Source of the DNA: Christensenella sp. UBA7571
GTDB taxonomy: Bacteria > Bacillota > Clostridia > Christensenellales > CAG-917
Length of the DNA: 64,000 nt
Assembly: GCA_002476605.1 (NCBI GenBank)
Contig: DLLD01000015.1
Location: 9,694-73,693 of the forward strand
Direction: 5' to 3'
Made by a program: the position numbers and the translations under genes. The notes beneath the pieces are model-generated. The model did no database searches. It saw nothing but the letters and a program-made list of their open reading frames with translations, and was not told the origin of the DNA. Positions 10,203-59,352 of the stretch are shown piece by piece (positions within the stretch are counted from its first letter, which is position 1; each line of letters opens with the position of its first letter).

Positions 10203-10236
10203 TCTTATATCGTTTATTGTGGATTTTATGAAAATT

Positions 10237-10372
10237 TCGAGTGTGGGTGTCCCGCCCTCGAAACAGTGATATCGTGCTTGCGCACGGTGATATTTGCGCA
10301 TAGCGCAAGTGATATTTTTTGTTATCGCAAAAAGTGATATTGCGACTTTGTCGCAGTTGTGGAATATTCCAT
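10237..10372 (+). repeat. Family A hairpin array: GC hairpin, then 4 x (GTGATAT + short palindrome), then GTTGTGGAATATTCC
   Basis: GTGATAT occurs 4 times, separated by CGTGC-TTGC-GCACG, TTGCGC-ATA-GCGCAA, TTTTTG-TTATCG-CAAAAA and TGCGAC-TTT-GTCGCA. The same architecture recurs at 56775-57058. Confidence 0.8.
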
Positions 10373-10391
10373 AAACAATAATAAAGTGCGT

Positions 10392-10719
10392 CGTAACTCC
10401 TCTAAATAGAATTGCCCCCTCTTTCCGGACACGCCGGCATTTCTAAAAAAATAATTAAATGCAACTTTCCCCCTTCCTCACGGTGTTTCCCCTATTCCGT
10501 TCCCCCTCCGCACTTCGTTTGAGGGAACCCACGGAACCGCTCCGCGGGGGGACACACTCGGCACGCGCATAGAGAAGTAACGTTCTCTCGTTATGCCACT
10601 CGTTCGCCAACGAAAAGAACAACACTCGTTGGCTCACTTGTACTTATCATCAAGCTTGGCGCTCGATTCGGTCGGCGCCTTGCGCCTCCAACTCCGAATA
10701 AGCAGATTCCGTGTATAAG
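10392..10719 (+). repeat. Family C interspersed structured element, copy 1 (about 330 nt)
   Basis: It shares conserved blocks with 42676-42953 and 51436-51950. These are TAACTCCTCTAAATAGAATTGCCCCCTCTTTCCGGACACGCCGGCATTTC, CTCGTTATGCCACT, the hairpin GCCAACGA/TCGTTGGC, CTTGTAC and the hairpin GGCGC-CTT-GCGCC. Confidence 0.75.
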
Positions 10720-10836: not shown

Positions 10837-10895
10837 TTCGGGTGTGGGTGTCCCACCCGCAATTATTAATTATTAACTATTAATTATTAATTCCT
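10837..10895 (+). repeat. H0 GC hairpin (TTCGGGTGTGGGTGTCCCACCC) fused to an AT-rich TTAATTATTAA tract
   Basis: A near-identical composite occurs at 59298-59352. H0 alone occurs at 47951-47972 and heads each family A copy. Confidence 0.75.
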
Positions 10896-36073: not shown

Positions 36074-37030
36074 ATGGCTCAATTTTCTCAATTGCAAAAC
36101 AAACCCGTGCTTGAAAGAGACTCGTCCAATATCGTCGGGCGCATAAAAAATGCATATTTTTCGCAAGGATGCAAATGCATCGTATATTTGGTTATGAATA
36201 GTTGCAAAAACGGTGAGGAAACGCTTATACCGTTTGACGACGTTTTGTCTTTTAAGGACGCAATCGTCGTGCAAAATTCCGTAAACTTCAAAAGTGCGCA
36301 AGATATAGACTTCACCGCTTTTACAGCGGGAATTATGGATATGCCGATATACACGCAAGCGGGCGTATTAAAAGGCAACGTGAGCGAAATCGAGTTTTCT
36401 CAAAGCGGAAAAGTGAGCAAAATATGCACGGAAACGGAGCAATTTTCACCCTCCGCAATACTCTCGGCGGGCAACGCGATAATATTGAAAGGCGCACCCA
36501 AAACGCCAAAGGCAAAACCCGCAAAAATTCCTCGTCCGAGCGTCGAAACGCTTGCCGTAATAGAAACCGACGATCTATCCGTACAAAACGACGCCACAAA
36601 GGTGAATATCGCAAGAGATATTTTCGTTAATACACAAAACGATAACTCCGACGGCACGACGAACGATATGTCGAATACGCAAATAGCAAAAACTGCAACC
36701 GACGCCAAACCCGACTATATTATGCAAAACGCAATATTGCACACCGCCCCGCCCGCAGTGTTCGTATCGGGCAATTCTCCTCTTTTTACGAAAGACGCGT
36801 TTGACACAATCGTCGGTGAGGAAAGCGAATACGAGGACACGCACACGCCTACGCGCGTTATATGCGATTACGAATTTCTTCTGGGCAGAGTGCTCGGACA
36901 AGACCTATATACGTATGCAAACGTGCCTATTGCCAAGAAAGGCGATATCGTCACGGACGAACTGGTAAGCAAAGCCCGCCTTGCAGGCAAACTTGTCGAA
37001 CTCACGTTAAATAGCATAAAACAAGAGTGA
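36074..37030 (+). CDS. PRC-barrel domain protein (YlmC/YmxH-like N-terminus, extended C-terminus)
   Basis: The N-terminal pattern LQNKPVLERDSSNIVGRIKNAYF...LIPFDDVLSFKDAIVV is PRC-barrel-like, and a second similar module follows. Confidence 0.6.
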   Translation: MAQFSQLQNKPVLERDSSNIVGRIKNAYFSQGCKCIVYLVMNSCKNGEETLIPFDDVLSFKDAIVVQNSVNFKSAQDIDFTAFTAGIMDMPIYTQAGVLKGNVSEIEFSQSGKVSKICTETEQFSPSAILSAGNAIILKGAPKTPKAKPAKIPRPSVETLAVIETDDLSVQNDATKVNIARDIFVNTQNDNSDGTTNDMSNTQIAKTATDAKPDYIMQNAILHTAPPAVFVSGNSPLFTKDAFDTIVGEESEYEDTHTPTRVICDYEFLLGRVLGQDLYTYANVPIAKKGDIVTDELVSKARLAGKLVELTLNSIKQE

Positions 37031-37076
37031 TAATTTGGATATTTTATATAAATAATATATAGATAATAAAATAATA

Positions 37077-37110
37077 GTTGATGTGGTTTGAAAGAGCCGC
37101 ATCAACTTTT
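37077..37110 (+). terminator. rho-independent terminator of the PRC-barrel gene
   Basis: The sequence is GTTGATGTGG-(10 nt)-CCGCATCAAC-TTTT. Confidence 0.65.
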
Positions 37111-37172
37111 AAATTGAGAATTTTTGAAAAGTTGTGATAAATAGATGGTTTTATTGACGCGACTGTAAGTCG

Positions 37173-37283
37173 CACCAAATAAACGCATAATGCGAAAGCG
37201 CCACGATTTGGCAACCCTAACCGTACAAATGCGTACGTGAGTTGTCAAATCGTGGCGCTGACAAAATTAGGCGTTATTTGGTG
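37173..37283 (-). repeat. Family B extended-hairpin module (variant with ATGCGAAAGC arm)
   Basis: P1 is CACCAAATAAACGC/GCGTTATTTGGTG. The outer stem is 37198-37210/37246-37258. The core is CAAC-CCTAAC-[CGTAC..GTACG]-TGA-GTTG. Strand was assigned from the U-rich tract that follows the hairpin on the minus strand. Confidence 0.7.
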
Positions 37284-37300
37284 TGACTTGGAAAGCCGTG

Positions 37301-37405
37301 CCAAATAGATGAAGAACAAGGAAGAGCCGTCCGTACGACAACCCAATTTACAAGTCGTAAATGAGTTGCGGGCGGACGGCTCTGACGCAGTTATTCGTTA
37401 TTTGG
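37301..37405 (-). repeat. Family B extended-hairpin module (variant with AGATGAAGAACAAGGAA arm), overlapping the stop codon of the M28 gene
   Basis: The outer stem is GAGCCGTCCG/CGGACGGCTC (37324-33/37373-82). The core is CAAC-CCAA-[TTTAC..GTAAA]-TGA-GTTG. P1 is CCAAATA/TATTTGG. On the minus strand the hairpin is followed by UUCCUUGUUCUUCAUCU. Confidence 0.7.
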
Positions 37406-38753
37406 TGCGGCTTTCCTCAATTTTGGAGATAACGCGGACGACTACGTCTAGTCCAAGCCCTACCGTGTCGGGGCTGAAACGCTCGGGAACGTCACGGAAG
37501 GTGTGATAGTAGTCGGACATAACGGGGTTTTGGGCGGCAAAGGTGATGGATTTGACACCGGCGCGTTGGAAAGGCGTTGAGTCGCACCCACCGACGGGGT
37601 TGGCAATGTTGCCGGGCTTTTTGATACCCGCTTCTTTCATTGCGTCGAAGAACATCTTTTCCAAGTCCTTGTCAAAGTGCGGGCAAAGCCAACTGTCACC
37701 GTGGATAACCTCGAAATGCTCTGCGTCGGCAATGGAGTCTATGTTGATGTGATAGGCGTTGTCGAGCATACCGTCGTCTTTATGCTTGCGAGTAAATGCG
37801 ATAGATCCGCGAAGACCGGACTCCTCCGCACCGACGTTGCAGTCGATAATACGGCAGTTTTTGGGCATTTTGTCGGGGTTTTCCTTGTAATACTTAACCA
37901 CTTGATACGCTATGGAAACGCCCGTTGCGTTGTCCATTGCACCTGGGGAGGCAATCTCTTCCGTCTTCTCGTTGTACATCGTGAGCAAGAATGAGCAAGC
38001 GATTGCAAGCGGTGAGCCGTAAAGCGCGATTTGGGAAAGTATTCCGTATGCTTCAAGCACGTTGAGGAGCGTGCGTTGGTCGAGGTTGTCACCGTATTGA
38101 TACATCATAATGAGCACGGTGAGCGCAATGCTGACCATAGTCACGAGCGCAACCGCGATTGCACCGAGACCGAGTCTCAACACGACGCCGACGAAGCCGA
38201 GCTTGTATTGCGAGGCACTGAGTTTGAGCGTCCAACTCGTATCGGTGTGTCCCGTAAGATAGATAGTGTAATCGTATTTGCCGTCTTCGGGAAGAAGCTC
38301 CGCATAAGTGTTTTGCGACACTTTGTGCTTGAAGCACCAGTCAAAGCAAGTGTGATATTTGAACACGCTGACGAAAAGCCAAATCCACACGCAAATCATA
38401 AACATCGTGCAGACGAAGTGTACCACCACTCCCGCGAAAGGCGAACCGAAACGCATTCTGGTGAATTGATACAAATCACCGCCGATGGACGACACCAAGA
38501 TTGCGATAAGCGTAAGAACGCAACCGATAATGCCCGCCCAACCCGCGTACGGAAGTCCGCCAATGGACGAGTGCGGTGCAAACACGAAGTTTTCGGTGAC
38601 GGGATTGAGACCTATCTCTTTGAGCTTGCCCGACATATAGTCGTGGTATTTTTTCTCGTTTTGAGAACCGGGAAGGCGCGGACCGATTTCGTTGGCGGCG
38701 TATTCCACCATCTTGTACGCATCGTCGCCGTACTTTTTGAGTTCTTCTCTCAT
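37398..38753 (-). CDS. M28 family metallopeptidase with an inserted multi-TM region (start trimmed)
   Basis: It has the M28 motifs GAMDNATGVS and NVGAEESGLRGS. The ATG at 38751-38753 is preceded by a GAGGA RBS. Confidence 0.75.
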   Translation of the reverse strand: MREELKKYGDDAYKMVEYAANEIGPRLPGSQNEKKYHDYMSGKLKEIGLNPVTENFVFAPHSSIGGLPYAGWAGIIGCVLTLIAILVSSIGGDLYQFTRMRFGSPFAGVVVHFVCTMFMICVWIWLFVSVFKYHTCFDWCFKHKVSQNTYAELLPEDGKYDYTIYLTGHTDTSWTLKLSASQYKLGFVGVVLRLGLGAIAVALVTMVSIALTVLIMMYQYGDNLDQRTLLNVLEAYGILSQIALYGSPLAIACSFLLTMYNEKTEEIASPGAMDNATGVSIAYQVVKYYKENPDKMPKNCRIIDCNVGAEESGLRGSIAFTRKHKDDGMLDNAYHINIDSIADAEHFEVIHGDSWLCPHFDKDLEKMFFDAMKEAGIKKPGNIANPVGGCDSTPFQRAGVKSITFAAQNPVMSDYYHTFRDVPERFSPDTVGLGLDVVVRVISKIEESRTK

Positions 38754-38824
38754 AATTTCCTCACTATCTTTTATTGTTATAAAATGCGAGCGCAAAATTA
38801 TGCGCTCGCACACTAAAACCTATT

Positions 38825-42645: not shown

Positions 42646-42675
42646 GTGGTAAGAGAAAGCGCATATTTGCTACTT

Positions 42676-42953
42676 CGTAACTCCTCAAATGCAATGCCCC
42701 CTCTTTCCGGACACGCCGGCATTTCTCCCGCCACTCGTATAAGGGTATTTCTCTACAATATTATCCGTCGCTCGCGGGGGAGACAATCGGCACTCACATA
42801 AAAAAGTATCGTCCCCTTGTTATATCACTCGTTCGCCAACGAAAAGAACAACACTCGTTGGCTCACTTGTACTATCCGTCAAGTTCGGCGCTCCACCGCT
42901 CACCGCCTTGCGGTTCGAGTTCTGTCTCCGAAATTGCGCATAGCGTTTATAAG
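42676..42953 (+). repeat. Family C interspersed structured element, copy 2 (about 280 nt)
   Basis: It has the same conserved blocks as copies 1 and 3. Hairpins are GCCAACGA/TCGTTGGC (42835-42/42855-62) and ACCGC-CTT-GCGGT (42902-14). Confidence 0.75.
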
Positions 42954-45165: not shown

Positions 45166-46136
45166 ACGAAATCACCTTTGAAAAATCTTTGCGCGCGTCA
45201 AAAGCGTTTTCGCTGATAAGCAGTGATTTGAAGACGGGGCTAGGCCACGCCTATATGATCGTGTCTCCCGACGACGAAATCGTGGACGAACTTTTTATGC
45301 TTACGGCAGCGAGCGTGTATTGCGTATCGCACGACGCTTGTCTCGATTGCGCGGAATGCAAAAAGGTGCTTCACAACAACCACCCCGACATATTCCACCT
45401 CTACCCCGTCAAGGACAAAATCAAGGTTGAGGACATCGAAGGACTTTTGGACACGGTCTCGGTCAAGTCGCTTTCGGGACGCAAACTTTATTTTATCCAC
45501 AGAGCGGATTTGATGAACGTGCAAGCGCAAAACAAGCTTCTCAAAACGCTTGAAGAACCGCCGTCGGACGTGACGATTTTCCTCGGCGTTGCCAACGAAG
45601 CGGGTATGCTCGACACCATCAAGTCGCGCACGAGAGAGATATACGTCGACATATTTGACGAGGACGTCGTATACGATGCAATGCTCGCACTCGGTCTCGA
45701 CAAGGAGATGAGCGCGATTGCCGCCACTTGCAGTGAGGGACAATTGGGCAAAGCGCGCAAAATCGCAACTTCCCCAAAGTACGCCGATTTATACAAGAGT
45801 GCGCTCTACGTCCTCAACAATCTTGCACGAAGCAACGACGTCGTAAAGGTGGACGGAATTATCGCAACGCAAGAGGATATCCAAGGATTTTTGGACGTTC
45901 TCTCCATTATTTTGCGAGATATGCTCGTAAGCAAACAAAACGAAAAAATGATGTTGTCCAAACACGTCAGCGAGGACATAATAAATTTGAGCGGTCGATA
46001 CAGCGAGCGCGCCGTTGCCGAGATTATCCTCAAAATCAACGCCGTGCGCAAAAAACTCGCGCTCAACGTCAGCACAATCGCGACGATTGACGACTTGCTC
46101 TTCTCTATATTGGAGGTTAGACACAAATGGCAGTAA
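45162..46136 (+). CDS. holB: DNA polymerase III subunit delta'
   Basis: It has a Cys cluster (CVSHDACLDCAECKKV) and an AAA+-like core lacking a canonical P-loop. It sits in the conserved tmk-holB-yaaT order, with a 4-nt overlap. Confidence 0.8.
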   Translation: MNEITFEKSLRASKAFSLISSDLKTGLGHAYMIVSPDDEIVDELFMLTAASVYCVSHDACLDCAECKKVLHNNHPDIFHLYPVKDKIKVEDIEGLLDTVSVKSLSGRKLYFIHRADLMNVQAQNKLLKTLEEPPSDVTIFLGVANEAGMLDTIKSRTREIYVDIFDEDVVYDAMLALGLDKEMSAIAATCSEGQLGKARKIATSPKYADLYKSALYVLNNLARSNDVVKVDGIIATQEDIQGFLDVLSIILRDMLVSKQNEKMMLSKHVSEDIINLSGRYSERAVAEIILKINAVRKKLALNVSTIATIDDLLFSILEVRHKWQ

Positions 46137-46984
46137 TTGTCGGAATAAAATTCAAAAACACCAACAAGGTGTACTACTTCGATCCAAAAGGTATCGAATT
46201 TAACGAAGGCGACGGCGTCATCGTGGAGACGGCGCGCGGTTTGGAATACGCCACTTGCACCATACCCAACAAGGACGTCGACGATAAAGAAATCGTGCAA
46301 CCATTGAAGCCCGTCGTGCGCAAAGCCACCCCCGAAGACGTCAAAAAGGTGGAAAAAAACAGACAAGACAAGGAGCACGCCCTCAAAGTCATTCGCGAAA
46401 AAGTGGCGGAAATGAACGTCGATATGAAGCTCGTCGACGCCGAATACACCTTTGACCGCTCCAAGCTCATCTTCTACTTCACCGCAGAAGGCAGAGTGGA
46501 TTTCAGAGAGCTCGTGCGCGTGCTTGCGTCAATATTCAAAGTGCGTATAGAACTCCGCCAAATTTACGAGCGCGACGACACCAAAATGCGCGGTGCACTT
46601 GCTCCTTGCGGACGTCCGTGTTGCTGCACCACCCACTTGCCCGACTTTGAAAAAGTGTCCATAAAAATGGCAAAAGTGCAAGGTTTGAGCCTCAATCCGC
46701 AAAAAATCAGCGGTGTTTGCGGTAGACTTATGTGCTGTTTGAAATACGAAAACGCCTATTACAGCGAAGTGTACAAACTTATGCCCAAAGTGGGTAGCAA
46801 AGTGCACACTCCCGACGGTGAAGGCACGGTTGAATCCAACGACCTCATCAAGCAAACCGCACGCGTAAAAGTTATGCTCAAAGACGGCAGTTTCGACGTC
46901 AAAACCTACGCCCTCGACGATATGAAGATCGGTGAACGCCAATCCACGGCGGAGATTGACGCAATGCCGGATAAAGAAGAGTAG
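46127..46984 (+). CDS. ricT: PSP1-domain regulatory protein RicT/YaaT (stage 0 sporulation protein)
   Basis: It has a PSP1 domain and a C-terminal Cys cluster (PCGRPCCC...CGRLMCCLKYE). Confidence 0.85.
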   Translation: MAVIVGIKFKNTNKVYYFDPKGIEFNEGDGVIVETARGLEYATCTIPNKDVDDKEIVQPLKPVVRKATPEDVKKVEKNRQDKEHALKVIREKVAEMNVDMKLVDAEYTFDRSKLIFYFTAEGRVDFRELVRVLASIFKVRIELRQIYERDDTKMRGALAPCGRPCCCTTHLPDFEKVSIKMAKVQGLSLNPQKISGVCGRLMCCLKYENAYYSEVYKLMPKVGSKVHTPDGEGTVESNDLIKQTARVKVMLKDGSFDVKTYALDDMKIGERQSTAEIDAMPDKEE

Positions 46985-46990
46985 CTTCGG

Positions 46991-47020
46991 TAGAGCCGTC
47001 CGATTTTCGGACGGCTCTTT
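46991..47020 (+). terminator. hairpin terminator after ricT
   Basis: The sequence is AGAGCCGTCCG-ATTTT-CGGACGGCTCT-TTC, with a short U tract. Confidence 0.55.
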
Positions 47021-47094
47021 CGACACCTATCTCGCACCGTTTTATAAAATATTTTTTATTAGATTATATCCGCATTACCCAAATTGTAATACGG

Positions 47095-47920: not shown

Positions 47921-47952
47921 GAAACCGAGAACTGTGTTCTCGGTCTTTTTTT
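47921..47952 (+). terminator. rho-independent terminator of the XRE gene
   Basis: The sequence is ACCGAGAAC-TGT-GTTCTCGGT-CTTTTTTT. Confidence 0.8.
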
Positions 47953-47972
47953 CGGGTGTGGGTGTTCCACCC
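47951..47972 (+). repeat. H0 GC hairpin module
   Basis: The sequence TTCGGGTGTGGGTGTTCCACCC directly follows the terminator U-run. It is the same module seen at 10837, 56775, 56918 and 59298. Confidence 0.7.
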
Positions 47973-48007
47973 TCACCGTCATTCCCTCTATAAAAAATGC
48001 GATAAAC

Positions 48008-48353
48008 AGATGAAGAACAAGAAAGGACTGTTCGCACGGCAACCCTAATTCCACTTGTTAAAAACGCGATAAATCGATGCACAACGCGAAAGCACCCCGA
48101 GGAGCGCAAACCCAACGTACACGACGTACGTGATTTGCGAAACTCGGGGTGCTGTAAGGAACGCAGTGACGGAATAGCGATTGTTACGTTATGCGTCAAT
48201 CGCGTCCAAAGTTAGGCGCGATTTAGCGCGTTTGTAAAACTTCGATATTTAGATGAAGAGCAAGGAAAAGCCCCTCGAATGACAACCCTAATTTACTAAT
48301 CGTAAATGAGTTGGCAGTCGAGGGGCTTTGACAAAGCTATTCGCTAAATAGCG
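48008..48353 (-). repeat. Array of family B modules: one truncated, two complete, plus a small GCGC hairpin
   Basis: Complete modules have outer stems 48092-48101/48143-52 (GCACCCCGAG/CTCGGGGTGC; core GCAAA-CCCAA-[CGTAC..GTACG]-TGA-TTTGC) and 48267-78/48318-29 (AAAGCCCCTCGA/TCGAGGGGCTTT; core CAAC-CCTAA-[TTTAC..GTAAA]-TGA-GTTG). The truncated copy is at 48008-48060. Confidence 0.7.
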
Positions 48354-48359
48354 AAGTTT

Positions 48360-48491
48360 TTACTTGCAGTCTTTGCAATCGGAAACGCCCTTTTTAGCGC
48401 GAGATTTCGTCGTTTTCTCTACTTTCGGTTCACCGCAATGGCAACCTTCGGATTTCTTGGTTTGTTTGACAGTTGAATTTGTTTTTGCCAT
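48360..48491 (-). CDS. small basic Cys-containing protein (43 aa), absent from the ORF track
   Basis: The translation is MAKTNSTVKQTKKSEGCHCGEPKVEKTTKSRAKKGVSDCKDCK. A strong RBS (AAGGAG) lies 7 nt before the ATG at 48489-48491, and a family B hairpin sits immediately downstream. Confidence 0.5.
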   Translation of the reverse strand: MAKTNSTVKQTKKSEGCHCGEPKVEKTTKSRAKKGVSDCKDCK

Positions 48492-50217: not shown

Positions 50218-51453
50218 ATGCTTGAACTATTGATGCCGGCGGGCAATCTCAAAAAACTCAAAACTGCTTTTCACTTCGGTGCGGACGCCGTGTATATAGG
50301 CGGAAAGCAGTTTTCTTTGCGTGCCTTTGCGGACAACTTCTCCGAAGAAGAAATGATAGAAGGCATAAATTTTGCTCACGCGTTCGGCAAAAAAGTGTAC
50401 GTCACGGTCAATATATTTGCCAAAAATTCCGACCTCGAAAAAGCCAAAGAATACTTTGAGTTTTTGCAAAAAGTCGGCGCTGACGCGGTGCTTATAAGCG
50501 ATATAGGTCTCGTGACGCTTTGCAAAGAAGTTGCTCCCGACCTCACTATTCACCTCTCCACGCAAGCCAACACAACTAACCTTCTTGCCGTCAAATTTTG
50601 GCAAAGTATGGGCGTAAAACGCGTGGTGCTTGCGCGCGAACTCGGCTACGACGAGATACTTGCCGTTCACAACGCCGTACCCGATATGGAACTCGAAGCG
50701 TTCGTGCACGGCGCAATGTGTATGAGTTACAGCGGGCGTTGTCTTCTCTCCTCTTATTTTAGCAATCGCAGTGCCAACCGCGGGGCGTGCATACAACCTT
50801 GCCGTTGGGGATATCGCATAACGGAGACGGAACGCCACGAGGGAAAACCTCTCGATATAGAGCAAGACGAGAGAGGCACTTACTTTATGAACAGTCGCGA
50901 TTTGCGCCTTTTGAGGCATATTCCCGAAATTGCACAATCGGGCATCGTTTCACTCAAAGTGGAAGGCCGTATGAAGAGCGAATTTTACGTCGCTACGGTG
51001 GCGTGCGCCTATCGCAAGGCAATCGACGAGTATTTGTCCACGGGACGTATAGACGACGTGGACACGCTCGAAACGCGCCTCGAAACGGTTGCTCACCGCA
51101 CCTACACCGACGCGTATTTTGACGGAGACAACCTCAACACCGTATGTATGGACGAGGGACAATCCCAAGAAAAATATATCTTCACCGCAGTCGTGCTTGA
51201 CTACTCGGACGGCGTTGCCACGGTTGAAATGCGCAATCGCTTCAAAACGGGTGACGTCTTGCGTATACTCTCCCCCGACGAGAGCGTAGACGACGAGCTT
51301 TTTGCCGTCGGTGAGATAACCCACACTCAAACGAACGAAAAAACGGACGATGCCAAACTCGTGCAACATACCTATTCTTTTGGCTGCCCCTACGCCGTTC
51401 AAAAAGGTGATTTATTGCTTAAAGACATGGACAGTCATAACTCCTCTAAATAG
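50218..51453 (+). CDS. peptidase U32 family protein
   Basis: The N-terminal pattern ELLMPAGNLKKLKTAFHFGADAVYIGG and a conserved Cys-rich core (CMSYSGRCLLS) support the call. The last codons and the stop lie inside family C copy 3. Confidence 0.85.
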   Translation: MLELLMPAGNLKKLKTAFHFGADAVYIGGKQFSLRAFADNFSEEEMIEGINFAHAFGKKVYVTVNIFAKNSDLEKAKEYFEFLQKVGADAVLISDIGLVTLCKEVAPDLTIHLSTQANTTNLLAVKFWQSMGVKRVVLARELGYDEILAVHNAVPDMELEAFVHGAMCMSYSGRCLLSSYFSNRSANRGACIQPCRWGYRITETERHEGKPLDIEQDERGTYFMNSRDLRLLRHIPEIAQSGIVSLKVEGRMKSEFYVATVACAYRKAIDEYLSTGRIDDVDTLETRLETVAHRTYTDAYFDGDNLNTVCMDEGQSQEKYIFTAVVLDYSDGVATVEMRNRFKTGDVLRILSPDESVDDELFAVGEITHTQTNEKTDDAKLVQHTYSFGCPYAVQKGDLLLKDMDSHNSSK

Positions 51454-51950
51454 AATTACCCCCTCTTTCCGGACACGCCGGCATTTCCACTTCGGCGTTT
51501 GCGCACCGCAATCCGCCTCGTTCGCTTTGGCTACAACACATTCACCGAATGTGTTGCTTGACGCGTCGCGCCCGACCACTCTTATAATGGCATTTCTCTG
51601 CAATATTATCCGTCGCTCGTGGGGGAGACATTTGGCACGCGCATAGAAAGGGACATTTCTCTCGTTATGCCACTGCGCTTTGTGCGCCAGCTACGCAACA
51701 ACACGGCGCAGTCGCTTGTACTACACCCCACAAGGCTTCCACACACAAAAGACAAGCGAACGAAGGCGCGATATATAAGATGAAAGCGCAGTCTTTTGTG
51801 TGAAGGAAAGAAGGAGCACCAAGGCAAAAAGCAAACAATTGGCACAAGTGGCAATTGTGGCAAAAAGCCTTGTGTGTGACGCGAGCTTGGCGCAAAGACG
51901 CTCGCCGCCTTGCGGCTCGAAGATCTGAATAAGCACATTTCGCTTATAAG
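51436..51950 (+). repeat. Family C interspersed structured element, copy 3 (about 515 nt, with two insertions)
   Basis: It has the same left block, central block (ATTTCTCTGCAATATTATCCGTCGCTCGTGGGGGAGACA), CTTGTAC, and the hairpin GCCGC-CTT-GCGGC (51904-16). Extra nested helices are CACAAGGCTT/AAGCCTTGTG and CACACACAAAAGAC/GTCTTTTGTGTG. Confidence 0.75.
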
Positions 51951-56774: not shown

Positions 56775-56916
56775 TTCGGGTGTGGGTGTCCCACCCCCGC
56801 CCTCAAAAATAGTGATATTGTGCTTGCGCACAGTTATATTTGCGCTTTGCGCAAGTGATATTTTTGGCTTGCGCCAAAAGTGATATTCGCACTCTGTGCG
56901 AGTTGTGGAATATTCT
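56775..56916 (+). repeat. Family A hairpin array, copy 2
   Basis: H0 (GGGTGTGGGTGTCCCACCC) is followed by GTGATAT/GTTATAT heptamers at 56812, 56833, 56855 and 56880. These are separated by TGTGC-TTGC-GCACA, TTGCGC-TTT-GCGCAA, TTTTGGC-TTGC-GCCAAAA and TCGCAC-TCT-GTGCGA. The copy ends in GTTGTGGAATATTC. Confidence 0.8.
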
Positions 56917-56917
56917 A

Positions 56918-57058
56918 TTCGGGTGCGGGTGTCCCGCCCCTTTCTCAAAAATAGTGATATTGTGCTTGCGCACAGTTATATTTGCGCTTTGCGAGAGTGA
57001 TATTGTTGCTATCGCAACAGTGATATTCGCACTTTGTGCGAGTTATGGAATATTCCAT
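56918..57058 (+). repeat. Family A hairpin array, copy 3 (tandem with copy 2, 143-bp period)
   Basis: The architecture is the same, with H0 changed to GCGGG/CCCGC and the third hairpin to TGTTGC-TATC-GCAACA. The second hairpin is degenerate. Confidence 0.8.
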
Positions 57059-57650: not shown

Positions 57651-58997
57651 ATGTCATATATCAGTGAAGTCATTGAACAGACCGAATTGAAAAACCCGGG
57701 ACAACCCCAATTTATGCAAACGGTGAAAGAGGTTCTTACGTCTCTCGCTCCCGCCGTCGAGCAACACGAAGAAACGATGAGAAAGAACGTTATCCTCGAA
57801 CGCCTCGTAGAACCCGATAGACAAATTATGTTCCGCGTGCCTTGGATGGACGACAACGGTGTATATCACGTCAATCGTGGTTTCCGCGTGCAATTCAACA
57901 ACGCAATCGGACCGTACAAGGGCGGTTTGCGCTTCCAAAAAGACGTCAACCTCGACGCAATGAAGTTCCTCGGTTTTGAACAAACCTTCAAAAACTCCCT
58001 CACTTCCCTTCCTATGGGCGGTGCAAAGGGCGGCGCGGACTTCGATCCCACCGGCAAGAGCGACGCTGAAATTATGCGTTTCTGCCAATCCTTTATGAAC
58101 GAACTTTATCGCCACATCGGACCGAGTATGGACGTCCCCGCGGGTGATATGGGCGTCGGCGGAAGAGAAATCGGTTATCTCTTCGGACAATACAAAAAAA
58201 TCGTCGGTTCTTACGAAAACGGCGTTCTCACCGGCAAAGGTTTGAGTTACGGCGGATCTCTCATCCGTCCCGAAGCAACCGGTTACGGCGCAACTTACTT
58301 CCTCGACGAAGTGCTCAAACACGAAGGCGAACAAATCAAAGGCAAGACCTTCTGCCTCAGCGGTTTCGGCAACGTCGCTTGGGGCGCAGCCGCAAAAATC
58401 ACCGAACTCGGCGGTAAGGTCGTCACCCTCTCCGGTCCCGACGGATATATCTACGATCCGGACGGCGTAAGCGGTGAAAAAATCGATTATATGCTCGAAA
58501 TGCGTGCATCTAACCGCAACAAAGTCAAAGATTACGCAGACAAATACGGTTGCGAATTCGTCGCGGGCAAGAAGCCTTGGGGCAACGTCAAAGCAGACGT
58601 TTATATGCCTTGCGCAAGACAAAACGAAGTGCTTCTCGAAGACGCGGAAGCCATGGTCAAACTCGGAGTCCCCGTACTCAACGAAGTTTCCAATATGCCC
58701 ACCACCAACGAGGCAATCGCATACTTGCAATCTCACGGAGTTCTCGTCACTCCGTCCAAAGCAGTCAACGCGGGCGGCGTAGCGACCAGCGGTCTCGAAA
58801 TGTCTCAAAACAGCGAACGTCTCTCTTGGACGGCAGAAGAAGTCGATGCAAAACTCAAACAAATTATGAAAGGCATCCACAACCAAATCTGCGACGCGCT
58901 CAACGCATACGGTCTCGACTACAACCTCGTCAAGGGTGCAAACCTTGCCGGTTTCAAGAAGGTATACGAAGCAATGTTGGCACAAGGCATAAACTGA
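57651..58997 (+). CDS. gdhA: NADP-specific glutamate dehydrogenase
   Basis: It has the Glu/Leu/Phe/Val dehydrogenase active-site region PMGGAKGGADFDP and a GFGNVAWG dinucleotide fold. It is 448 aa long. Confidence 0.93.
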   Translation: MSYISEVIEQTELKNPGQPQFMQTVKEVLTSLAPAVEQHEETMRKNVILERLVEPDRQIMFRVPWMDDNGVYHVNRGFRVQFNNAIGPYKGGLRFQKDVNLDAMKFLGFEQTFKNSLTSLPMGGAKGGADFDPTGKSDAEIMRFCQSFMNELYRHIGPSMDVPAGDMGVGGREIGYLFGQYKKIVGSYENGVLTGKGLSYGGSLIRPEATGYGATYFLDEVLKHEGEQIKGKTFCLSGFGNVAWGAAAKITELGGKVVTLSGPDGYIYDPDGVSGEKIDYMLEMRASNRNKVKDYADKYGCEFVAGKKPWGNVKADVYMPCARQNEVLLEDAEAMVKLGVPVLNEVSNMPTTNEAIAYLQSHGVLVTPSKAVNAGGVATSGLEMSQNSERLSWTAEEVDAKLKQIMKGIHNQICDALNAYGLDYNLVKGANLAGFKKVYEAMLAQGIN

Positions 58998-59016
58998 AAA
59001 TCGACGCGATTTTACG

Positions 59017-59050
59017 AAAGACACGCAATTTTGCGTGTCTTTCTTTTATT
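59017..59050 (+). terminator. rho-independent terminator of gdhA
   Basis: The sequence is GACACGCA-ATTT-TGCGTGTC-TTTCTTTTATT. Confidence 0.8.
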
Positions 59051-59189
59051 CGCTAGATTTTCAGTTTTCTAATCGCGCAACCGCTGTGTTGCTCGCAGTC
59101 CATACACGGACAAAAACTCCCGCCACAATTCCGCCACATCGCTTGCTTGATACTCGCTTCGCTCGTTGTTTTATGCGGATAGTAATTTT

Positions 59190-59240
59190 GGGTTTGCACC
59201 TCACGGGGTGCTTTCTTGTTCTTCATCTATTTTACAGCCT
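59190..59240 (+). repeat. Partial family B module (3' half only), plus-strand orientation
   Basis: The sequence TTTTGGGTTTGCACCTCACGGGGTGCTTTCTTGTTCTTCATCTATTT aligns with the reverse complement of the 48.1-kb module (GTTGGGTTTGCGCTCCTCGGGGTGCTTTCGCGTTGTGCATC). The 5' half is missing. Confidence 0.55.
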
Positions 59241-59260
59241 TTTAGAATTGTGTTTTTATT

Positions 59261-59292: not shown

Positions 59293-59297
59293 ATAAT

Positions 59298-59352
59298 CGG
59301 GTTTGGGTGTCCCACCCACAATTATTAATTAATAATTGCTAATTATTAATTT
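59298..59352 (+). repeat. H0 hairpin variant plus AT-rich palindromic tract
   Basis: CGGGTTTGGGTGTCCCACCC is followed by the perfect palindrome AATTATTAATTAATAATT and then GCTAATTATTAATT. It is the counterpart of 10837-10895. Confidence 0.7.

Follow-up and report, generated by a model that had tools for sequence, protein, structure and literature searches.

Palindromic DNA elements docked on host stop codons in a lineage of uncultured gut Clostridia

The hairpin pair beside the M28 peptidase gene

The DNA analysed here is a 64,000-nucleotide stretch of contig DLLD01000015.1 from Christensenella sp. UBA7571 (the window; positions are counted from its first nucleotide), and our subject is a family of long palindromic elements, two of which lie at 37167-37416, between a PRC-barrel gene on the plus strand (36074-37030) and a convergent M28 peptidase gene on the minus strand (37398-38813). 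These two, M1 (37167-37289) and M2 (37290-37416), are adjoining long hairpins that measure 123-127 nt with their full outer arms, longer than the 105-111 nt given in an earlier note on this DNA; that note was correct in placing two adjacent hairpin modules of one shared architecture here and in the order it gave to their parts. Folded as RNA, M1 and M2 have predicted energies between -55 and -59 kcal/mol whichever strand is taken, and their z-scores relative to shuffled sequences run from -6.6 to -9.7. The window contains three matches to the pattern CAACCC..TGAGTTG, where 0.01 would be expected. Rfam 15 gave no match at gathering scores across the whole window, and a search of 37000-37500 at E values up to 10 returned only far-sub-threshold noise, in agreement with the earlier statement that no known family could be assigned.

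M2 is a complete type II copy (nhmmer match 37291-37415, E = 7.7e-31, with support from the fold) on the minus strand, in the sense of the M28 gene on which it is docked; read on the plus strand it consists of a P1 arm, a unit starting with GATGAAG and a second P1 arm. The gene-side P1 arm (37399-37416, minus strand) consists of the last codons of M28 (..E S R T K; open reading frame (ORF) 37398-38813, Pfam M28), and the M28 stop codon TAA (37398-37400) spans the junction between arm and unit. The far P1 arm (37290-37307, minus strand), which reads GGAAAGCCGTGCCAAATA on the plus strand, is the inverted 3' coding end of M28 with two transition mismatches. The intervening unit (37308-37398, minus strand) was delimited by sequence, alignment and fold. 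On the plus strand it opens with GATGAAGAACAAGGAA (37308-37323) and closes with TGACGCAGTTATTCGT (37383-37398); the P3 stem pairs GAGCCGTCCG (37324-37333) with CGGACGGCTC (37373-37382), the core comprises CAACCC (37339-37344), TGA (37362-37364) and GTTG (37365-37368), and in the apical stem TTTAC (37347-37351) pairs with GTAAA (37357-37361). The purine-rich arm of the earlier description is indeed present on the plus strand, and it can now be added that it pairs with GYTATTCGC.

M1, the second member of this tandem pair, is a complete type I variant on the same strand (minus; nhmmer E = 2.5e-15), in which P1 is formed by AAGTCGCACCAAATAA (37167-37182) and TTATTTGGTGTGACTT (37274-37289) and P3 by GCGCCACGATTTG (37198-37210) and CAAATCGTGGCGC (37246-37258), around a core of CAACCC (37212-37217), an apical stem CGTAC/GTACG and TGAGTTG (37238-37244). 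The P1 stems of the two modules, previously regarded as unrelated in sequence, both repeat the final 16-18 nt of M28 (..CGCACCAAATA), M1 holding two further copies of the 16-mer from the M28 3' end. The strict docking of the element on a stop codon and the partial derivation of its outer stem from the host gene's 3' end are the two features that the earlier note missed. A small palindrome, GCGACT-GTA-AGTCGC, is found at the outer edge of the M2-M1 pair (37148-37184), and a related one, CGACT-TAC-AGTCG, follows each far arm in loci L120 and L121 of the genome scan described below; such palindromes may mark how arrays join.

Architecture, covariation and stop-codon docking of the family

The family was assembled from a genome scan (one genome per species) with a pattern taken from the 5' half only, namely GATGAAGARCAAGRAA and CAAMCC separated by a gap of 8-22 nt, and all family counts rest on the matches listed in that scan (at least 116 loci) plus the window. 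Nearly all loci come from uncultured gut Clostridia, with a few chance matches in unrelated phyla; host labels among the matches listed include Christensenella sp. UBA7588, UBA6880 and UBA767, Clostridiales UMGS bins and a complete metagenome-assembled genome (MAG) of 1.65 Mb. Full copies number at least 116 (listed loci and window together), and in 72 of them the unit from GATGAAG to TTCGC is exactly 93 nt long; 44 more matches to the 5' motif lack the 3' motif and represent truncated or chimeric copies together with chance matches in unrelated phyla. An nhmmer search with a hidden Markov model (HMM) of the family gave 191 matches in 824 kb. The pattern also matched 14 times in viral contigs, but none of these matches fits the family HMM, and a phage origin was rejected with all 14 judged to be due to chance. 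Among the matches listed, the family occurs only in one lineage of uncultured gut Clostridia, and it is previously undescribed. Several bins that carry the repeat bear odd names (Phascolarctobacterium succinatutens, Butyrivibrio crossotus, Anaeroplasmataceae and Bacteroides sp.; loci L004, L029-L031, L005, L006 and others), and they also carry orthologues of window genes with about 90% identity; since the repeat is specific to Clostridia and the orthologues are this close, the bin names are probably wrong.

The element is an imperfect DNA palindrome of about 127 bp, composed of a 93-bp conserved unit and outer arms of 16-19 bp. On the GATGAAG strand, the outer arm P1 is 16-19 nt long and variable, with a loose consensus TAAAAnnGCGATATTKA. 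In P2, GATGAAGARC pairs with GYTATTCGC and the R/Y position covaries (94 A-T against 16 G-C); inside it lies an internal loop in which AAGRAA faces TGMCGNA. P3 is a GC-rich stem of 10-13 bp and variable sequence, P4 is CAAC/GTTG and is followed by an asymmetric loop in which CCTAA faces TGA, and the apical stem of 5-6 bp (of the TTTAC, GTAC or CGTAC type) carries a small loop. The conserved blocks in the 111-copy consensus are GATGAAGARCAAGRAA, CAACCCTAA, TGAGTTG and GYTATTCGC. A kink-turn in the CCTAA/TGA loop was rejected by eye, the required G.A pair beside the bulge being missing on both strands. A 12-codon ORF running from GATGAAGAAC to CAACCCTAA was also considered and rejected; its peptide varies with the P3 arm and it has no ribosome-binding site.

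Covariation was assessed in an alignment of 111 distinct copies with base pairs predicted by RNAalifold. Compensated double changes occur in 40 of the 46 predicted pairs, and the earlier note was right to describe a hairpin that recurs as a family, its stems compensating around unpaired motifs that are conserved. Standard pairs occupy 94.5% of cells, against 73.0% in column shuffles (none of 500 reached the observed value), pairing falls to 32-41% when the partners are slid by 1-3 columns, and 1075 cells are changed on both sides of the pair. Even the CAAC/GTTG core, which had been called invariant, covaries: it is CAAA/TTTG in one window copy (CAAACCC/TGATTTG, at 48058-48154) and ACAG/CTGT or CTCG/CGAG in other copies. 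Mismatches among the 4988 paired cells are rare and roughly symmetric (120 G.T, 79 A.C and 201 others), so the constraint is on Watson-Crick complementarity and not on RNA-style pairing of one strand; a call of the RNA strand from G.U against A.C counts gave no clear signal, and there is one conserved wobble per strand. Between near-identical copies most differences are one-sided, and between distant copies most are compensated, with the ratio of compensated to one-sided changes climbing from 0.08 to 2.68. This pattern fits changes that arise singly and are later resolved, and it is equally compatible with selection on pairing and with slow templated correction.

The elements are locked onto the ends of genes. 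In about 87 of 116 copies an opposite-strand ORF of at least 100 codons terminates at the right arm. Its stop begins at a distance of 11-16 nt from the unit, at the arm's outer end; on the opposite side the gene ends lie 26-350 nt off, with just one mirror-image case within 20 nt. When orthologues are collapsed, 59 independent gene families remain, of which 42 have the stop in the outer arm, 8 have it deeper within the arm, 5 where arm and unit meet and 2 in the unit itself. TAA is the stop in 38 of 40 outer-arm families, compared with a background of about 45% among long ORFs. Complementarity of the far arm to the three stop bases is 0.93, 0.85 and 0.75, dropping to 0.68 and 0.53 for the last two coding bases and to about 0.3 further out, and the end logos of the element read TAAaa ... 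ttTTA. The palindrome thus includes the host stop codon, and the elements sit in a single orientation directly on the stops of ordinary genes. In the gene sense, all three frames are closed by the start of the element: the tip supplies TAA, the junction TGA or TAG, and GCGAATAAC another TAA. Because both orientations of the element are found within one stretch of the window with monotonic GC skew, orientation is set by the gene and not by the replication strand. The placement earlier likened to that of a 3' untranslated region (UTR) or terminator element holds good: the element is found immediately downstream of genes in the sense orientation, and its outer GC stem is succeeded by a U-rich run.

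The M28 locus shows where an outer arm can come from. In all lineages examined (the window and loci L029, L120-122 and L117-118; 78-99% protein identity) the unit starts exactly at the M28 stop, and serS-M28 synteny is kept throughout. The gene-side arm codes for ..E S R T K, and the C-terminus ..KIEESRTK is conserved in 120 M28 homologues, the alignment spanning the tail down to 27% identity. An element-free relative with a plain terminator (52% identity) has ..KIAESRTG.. at the equivalent place, followed by 35 more residues. The idea that the tail EESRTK was a gift of the element was rejected, because homologues of 27% identity align through the tail and the element-free relative has ESRT; by this comparison the gene-side arm at M28 is native coding sequence. 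The coding arm reads GGAAAGCCGCACCAAATA in the window, where the far arm is TATTTGGCACGGCTTTCC; in L029 it is GGAAAGTCGCACCAAATA and the far arm is its exact reverse complement; in L120 the two arms are AAGTCGTGTCAAATA and TATTTGACACGACTT, and in L117 CAAGAGCGCACTAAAT and ATTTATTGCGCTCTTG. Since the far arm inverts each lineage's own codons, the outer stem at M28 is made of host sequence and the far arm follows the gene. The M28 proteins encoded at loci L119 and L117 are identical, but at L119 only a P3 hairpin and a T-run are present.

Comparison of orthologous sites revealed considerable turnover. One gene end is empty and furnished with an ordinary terminator in L033, holds a full element in L037, a truncated one in L092 and a decayed one in the window, the protein length being constant throughout, and a gene with the identical C-terminus DLEFEWVD shows three different combinations of arm, unit and stop codon in three MAGs. 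A near-identical unit with its arms is found at several different gene ends, and therefore the arms can travel with the unit; in tandem arrays (L081, L104, L054 and M2-M1 of the window) the arms are common to the members and the units may differ. The outer arms are in every case inverted repeats, 16-19 nt long and widely variable, and no parent element was seen. Among 86 distinct copies, direct repeats flank the palindrome no more often than in the control, and the family is not a set of recent identical copies flanked by target-site duplications. Two further insertion models were rejected: if TA were duplicated at the stop codon, the base following the far TTA should be A or G, which is not observed, and insertion of the unit into pre-existing short hairpins finds no support in 876 kb, where no empty P1 hairpin occurs.

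Proposed role and competing explanations

We propose that this is a lineage-specific family of REPIN/ERIC-like palindromes specialised as gene ends, terminator-like and probably mobile, and we put the probability of this reading at about one half. In the mRNA, the GC-rich P3 stem followed by UUYCUUGYUCUUCAUC would act as an intrinsic terminator and as a protective 3' hairpin, and convergent transcription, arriving from the other side, could be stopped by the full hairpin together with the U-run that comes after it and is encoded by the TAAAA stop region. P3 and UUYCUUGYUC are both present in the gene sense, with a sub-hairpin of 35-40 nt as the loop, and a terminator scan flags the 3' arm of P3 in M2, with its TTCCTTGTTC tail, on the gene strand. 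Ordinary terminators lie downstream of 5 of 65 genes with the element (7.7%) and of 80 of 506 without it (15.8%). Decayed copies shrink to P3 and the T-run, which suggests that host selection acts on this part.

Given strict Watson-Crick pairing on both strands, complementarity may be maintained at the DNA level, either by hairpin-templated correction or fold-back synthesis, by selection on a single-stranded DNA hairpin, or by both. Templated perfecting is an established source of mutation in quasi-palindromes. The far arm keeps in step with the gene-side arm even where the latter is coding. Since spread duplicates nothing and reuses sites, the candidate agents would be a single-strand transposase of the HUH/Y1 type inserting beside TAA or fold-back (snap-back) synthesis during repair; fold-back synthesis at the hairpin would also account for the copying of the gene-side flank in inverted form. 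The motifs GATGAAGARCAAGRAA, TGMCGNAGYTATTCGC and CCTAA/TGA, which are unpaired and invariant, could form the recognition surface of a putative protein, which probably reads these blocks, as they are far more conserved than a terminator needs.

Several points weigh against this proposal. The terminator role of P3 is one that we infer from its sequence; the U-run is interrupted, and a simple scan called no terminator in the decayed window copy. The depletion of ordinary terminators is suggestive, the difference being small and the control set crude. DNA-level correction is likewise inferred, the trend from one-sided to compensated changes (0.08 to 2.68) fitting ordinary selection equally well. 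The 87:1 orientation bias and the exact docking fit no known mechanism of repetitive extragenic palindromes (REPs) or of miniature inverted-repeat transposable elements (MITEs), and the 111-copy consensus has no GTAG-type 5' head as in REPs. Queries approximating IS608 TnpA and the E. coli REP-associated tyrosine transposase (RAYT) found no Y1/RAYT match by tblastn in the approximately 880 kb sampled, and no transposase lies between inverted pairs of elements, where the ORFs encode a helix-turn-helix protein and an uncharacterised one.

A bolder version, which we regard as doubtful, is that the unit itself builds, or keeps rebuilding, the far arm as an inverted copy of the gene side, stop codon and native codons among it, that a putative lineage-specific enzyme reads the loops, and that the whole is a gene-end system replacing ordinary terminators on about one tenth of the genes of the lineage. 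If the far arm is such a copy, there would be an insertion chemistry that makes inverted target duplications, or a DNA hairpin that perfects itself. Should our main reading be right, a common though uncultured lineage of gut Clostridia would mark a sizeable share of its gene ends with one mobile structured DNA module, and this module would stand in for individually evolved terminators. The family would offer a natural system for studying the upkeep of long DNA palindromes and the contest between templated correction and selection, the choice of sites by REP-like elements, and the coupling of translation termination to transcription termination by a hairpin at the stop codon. It is usable as a metagenome marker of the lineage and is a likely source of assembly breaks and mis-binning.

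Among known systems, the family is best filed with the REPs, bacterial interspersed mosaic elements (BIMEs) and REPINs, its closest class, and set apart within it by oriented docking, a five-helix architecture and an outer stem that tracks the host; REP/BIME elements were thus rightly chosen for comparison in the earlier note. REPs have been proposed to act as terminators and mRNA stabilisers. Both groups are high-copy extragenic palindromes, long kept in one lineage, that have compensating hairpin stems, often lie just after stops and lack target-site duplications. Compensating changes are reported to be common in REPIN hairpins (PMC3116915), and a class of REPs lying no more than 15 nt from a stop codon has been described in E. 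coli, where it makes up about 11% of the REPs predicted by RepRanger (PMC12306157). By contrast, about three quarters of the present copies are docked and nearly all of these in one orientation, the unit is much longer at about 127 bp and comprises five helices and internal loops that are fixed, the stem contains the stop codon and sometimes host codons, and no RAYT was found in the DNA sampled (approximately 880 kb).

ERIC/IRU and Correia (CREE/NEMIS) elements measure 100-150 bp; they too are imperfect palindromes, lie in transcribed intergenic regions and form long hairpins in mRNA. Effects on termination, RNase processing and mRNA stability have been reported for them, ERIC copies carry compensated substitutions, and Correia elements have conserved 26-bp terminal repeats and TA duplications. 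The present family resembles them in size and in hairpin formation in mRNA, but it has no sequence relation to them, its arms vary and no duplication is seen; to our knowledge, no ERIC or Correia element has been reported to be locked onto stop codons in one orientation. An intrinsic terminator shares with the present element the GC-rich stem of 10-13 bp, the U-rich run that follows it in the gene sense and the A-rich stretch before it. The differences are that the loop here is a conserved sub-hairpin of 35-40 nt, that two further helices surround the stem, and that the 'U-run' is nearly invariant over hundreds of copies, beyond what a terminator needs.

A first alternative is a structured cis-acting RNA of the 3' UTR, in which the gene-sense transcript folds and a dedicated RNA-binding protein or nuclease reads the internal loops (for example RNase III acting on the 26-29-bp P1-P2 duplex), thereby setting mRNA 3' ends, stability or translation termination, and in which covariation arises from selection on the RNA. 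Such an RNA would explain the strict sense orientation after genes, the covariation of all helices around invariant unpaired motifs, and the early one-sided and later compensated changes, which resemble classical compensatory evolution; the 6-bp helix CAACUC/GGGUUG, with one G.U, exists on the gene-sense strand only, and stop-proximal REPs are said to affect translation (PMC12306157). The expected excess of G.U on the gene strand is nevertheless missing, the written-strand A.C mismatches that correspond to gene-sense G.U numbering 79 against 120 of the opposite kind and 201 others. The far P1 arm lies past the U-run where transcripts would end, and its complementarity is kept all the same; an outermost stem beyond the likely termination point is contrary to an RNA reading. 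Rfam gave no match. The emphasis that the earlier note placed on RNA is therefore not favoured, with 120 G.T, 79 A.C and 201 other mismatches among 4988 cells bearing no G.U signature, and we consider this alternative unlikely.

Equally improbable in our estimate is a site for single-strand DNA recombination, of the kind seen in attC or at the ends of IS200/IS605. A tyrosine or HUH recombinase would then act on the hairpin, fixed bulges included, docking would reflect site-specific insertion beside TAA, and terminator activity would be incidental. In common with attC, the element is an imperfect palindrome of comparable length, begins at the upstream ORF's stop in fixed orientation, and conserves structure and bulged bases while the stem sequence varies. 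The lack of target-site duplication, the enrichment of TAA and the strictly Watson-Crick pairing all agree with it, and different copies at the same site in related genomes are expected from precise excision and a reusable target. On the other hand, the R''/R' boxes RYYYAAC ... GTTRRRY are absent from the ends, the conserved blocks lying inside the hairpin and not at its base; there are no cassette arrays, both orientations occur in the window, and the upstream genes are conserved chromosomal ones in syntenic housekeeping settings (serS-M28) and not cassettes. No integrase, nearby or elsewhere, and no Y1 transposase was seen in the sampled DNA, and the gene-side arm at M28, being host coding sequence, is unexplained by the insertion of a preformed site.

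Finally, an ordinary decaying MITE, whose hairpin look would stem from terminal inverted repeats only, with neither structural selection nor function, would account for the multiple copies, the tandem arrays, the truncated and chimeric copies and the varying presence among genomes, but it is very improbable given that no target-site duplication is made (a difference from DDE-type MITEs), that old and diverged copies still have 94.5% of cells paired and 1075 compensated, that the M28 copy is common to lineages down to 78% protein identity with its arms still pairing, and that an orientation and position bias of about 87:1 is unexpected for neutral insertion.

Other copies and repeats in the window

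With the family HMM, seven copies or remnants were found in the window: three are complete, one has a variant 3' tail, two are reduced to 5' halves and one is decayed, where four complete modules had been claimed before. Apart from M1 and M2, the complete copy is M3 (48234-48363, minus strand; type II; nhmmer E = 2.3e-35), which sits on the TAA (48360-48362) of a 43-aa ORF. This Cys-rich ORF (MAKTNSTVKQTKKSEGCHCGEPKVEKTTKSRAKKGVSDCKDCK; 48362-48490, minus strand) ends in the docked M3, and an identical ORF end is found in L092; with an element on such a stop, small ORFs are docked too. M4b (48058-48215, minus strand) is a type I copy with the compensated core CAAACCC/TGATTTG and a long variant of the 3' tail. 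This longer tail, which replaces TGACGNAGTTATTCGC in some copies (48155-48215 in the window; L003, L007, L008, L050 and L096), reads TGTAAGGAACGMAGTGACGGAATAGCGATTGTTACG..GCGTCAATCGCGTCC and has a small hairpin of its own.

M4a (47993-48050, minus strand) is the 5' half of a type II copy that is full at the orthologous site in L092. M5 (59175-59246, plus strand, with the GATGAAG strand being the minus strand of the window) is likewise truncated to its 5' half, with full copies at the orthologous sites in L041 and L056, and its 3' half has been swapped for about 190 nt of another conserved sequence. This stretch (ACGAGCGAAGCGAGYATCAAGCAAGCGATGTGGCGGAATTG..AGCAACACAGCGGTTGCGCGAT.., with a hairpin at its end) lies at about 58995-59175 on the minus strand of the window and occurs twice in L020; it takes the place of the 3' half in truncated copies of the element and has no Rfam match. 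Related stretches, ATCAAGC..GCGAAATTGYGGC, lie downstream of the M28 elements in L117, L119 and L120. The decayed copy (about 46985-47045, plus strand) follows a plus-strand gene (46127-46984) and retains only the P3 hairpin (GAGCCGTCCG, a 5-nt loop and CGGACGGCTC), a short T-run and the far arm.

The window holds other repeats as well. A second family, a short GC-rich hairpin TTCGGGTGTGGGTGTCCCACCC that often lies beside AT-rich runs, is found at 10236-10260, 10837-10861, 47951-47975, 56775-56799, 56918-56942 and 59296-59320, and also in related loci (e.g., L053 and L065). Repeats of 72-118 nt made of GTGATATT motifs and short palindromes (GTGCTTGCGCAC, TTGCGCTTTGCGCAA) occupy 10249-10372, 56795-56918 and 56937-57058, with a tandem pair near 56.8-57.1 kb. 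Other dispersed repeats, 54-118 nt long and 70-96% identical (..CCCCCTCTTTCCGGACACGCCGGCATTTC and others), occur at 10390-10443, 42672-42725 and 51434-51487, at 42731-42829 and 51576-51674, and at 10547-10664 and 42776-42893; intergenic repeats are unusually abundant for a genome this small.

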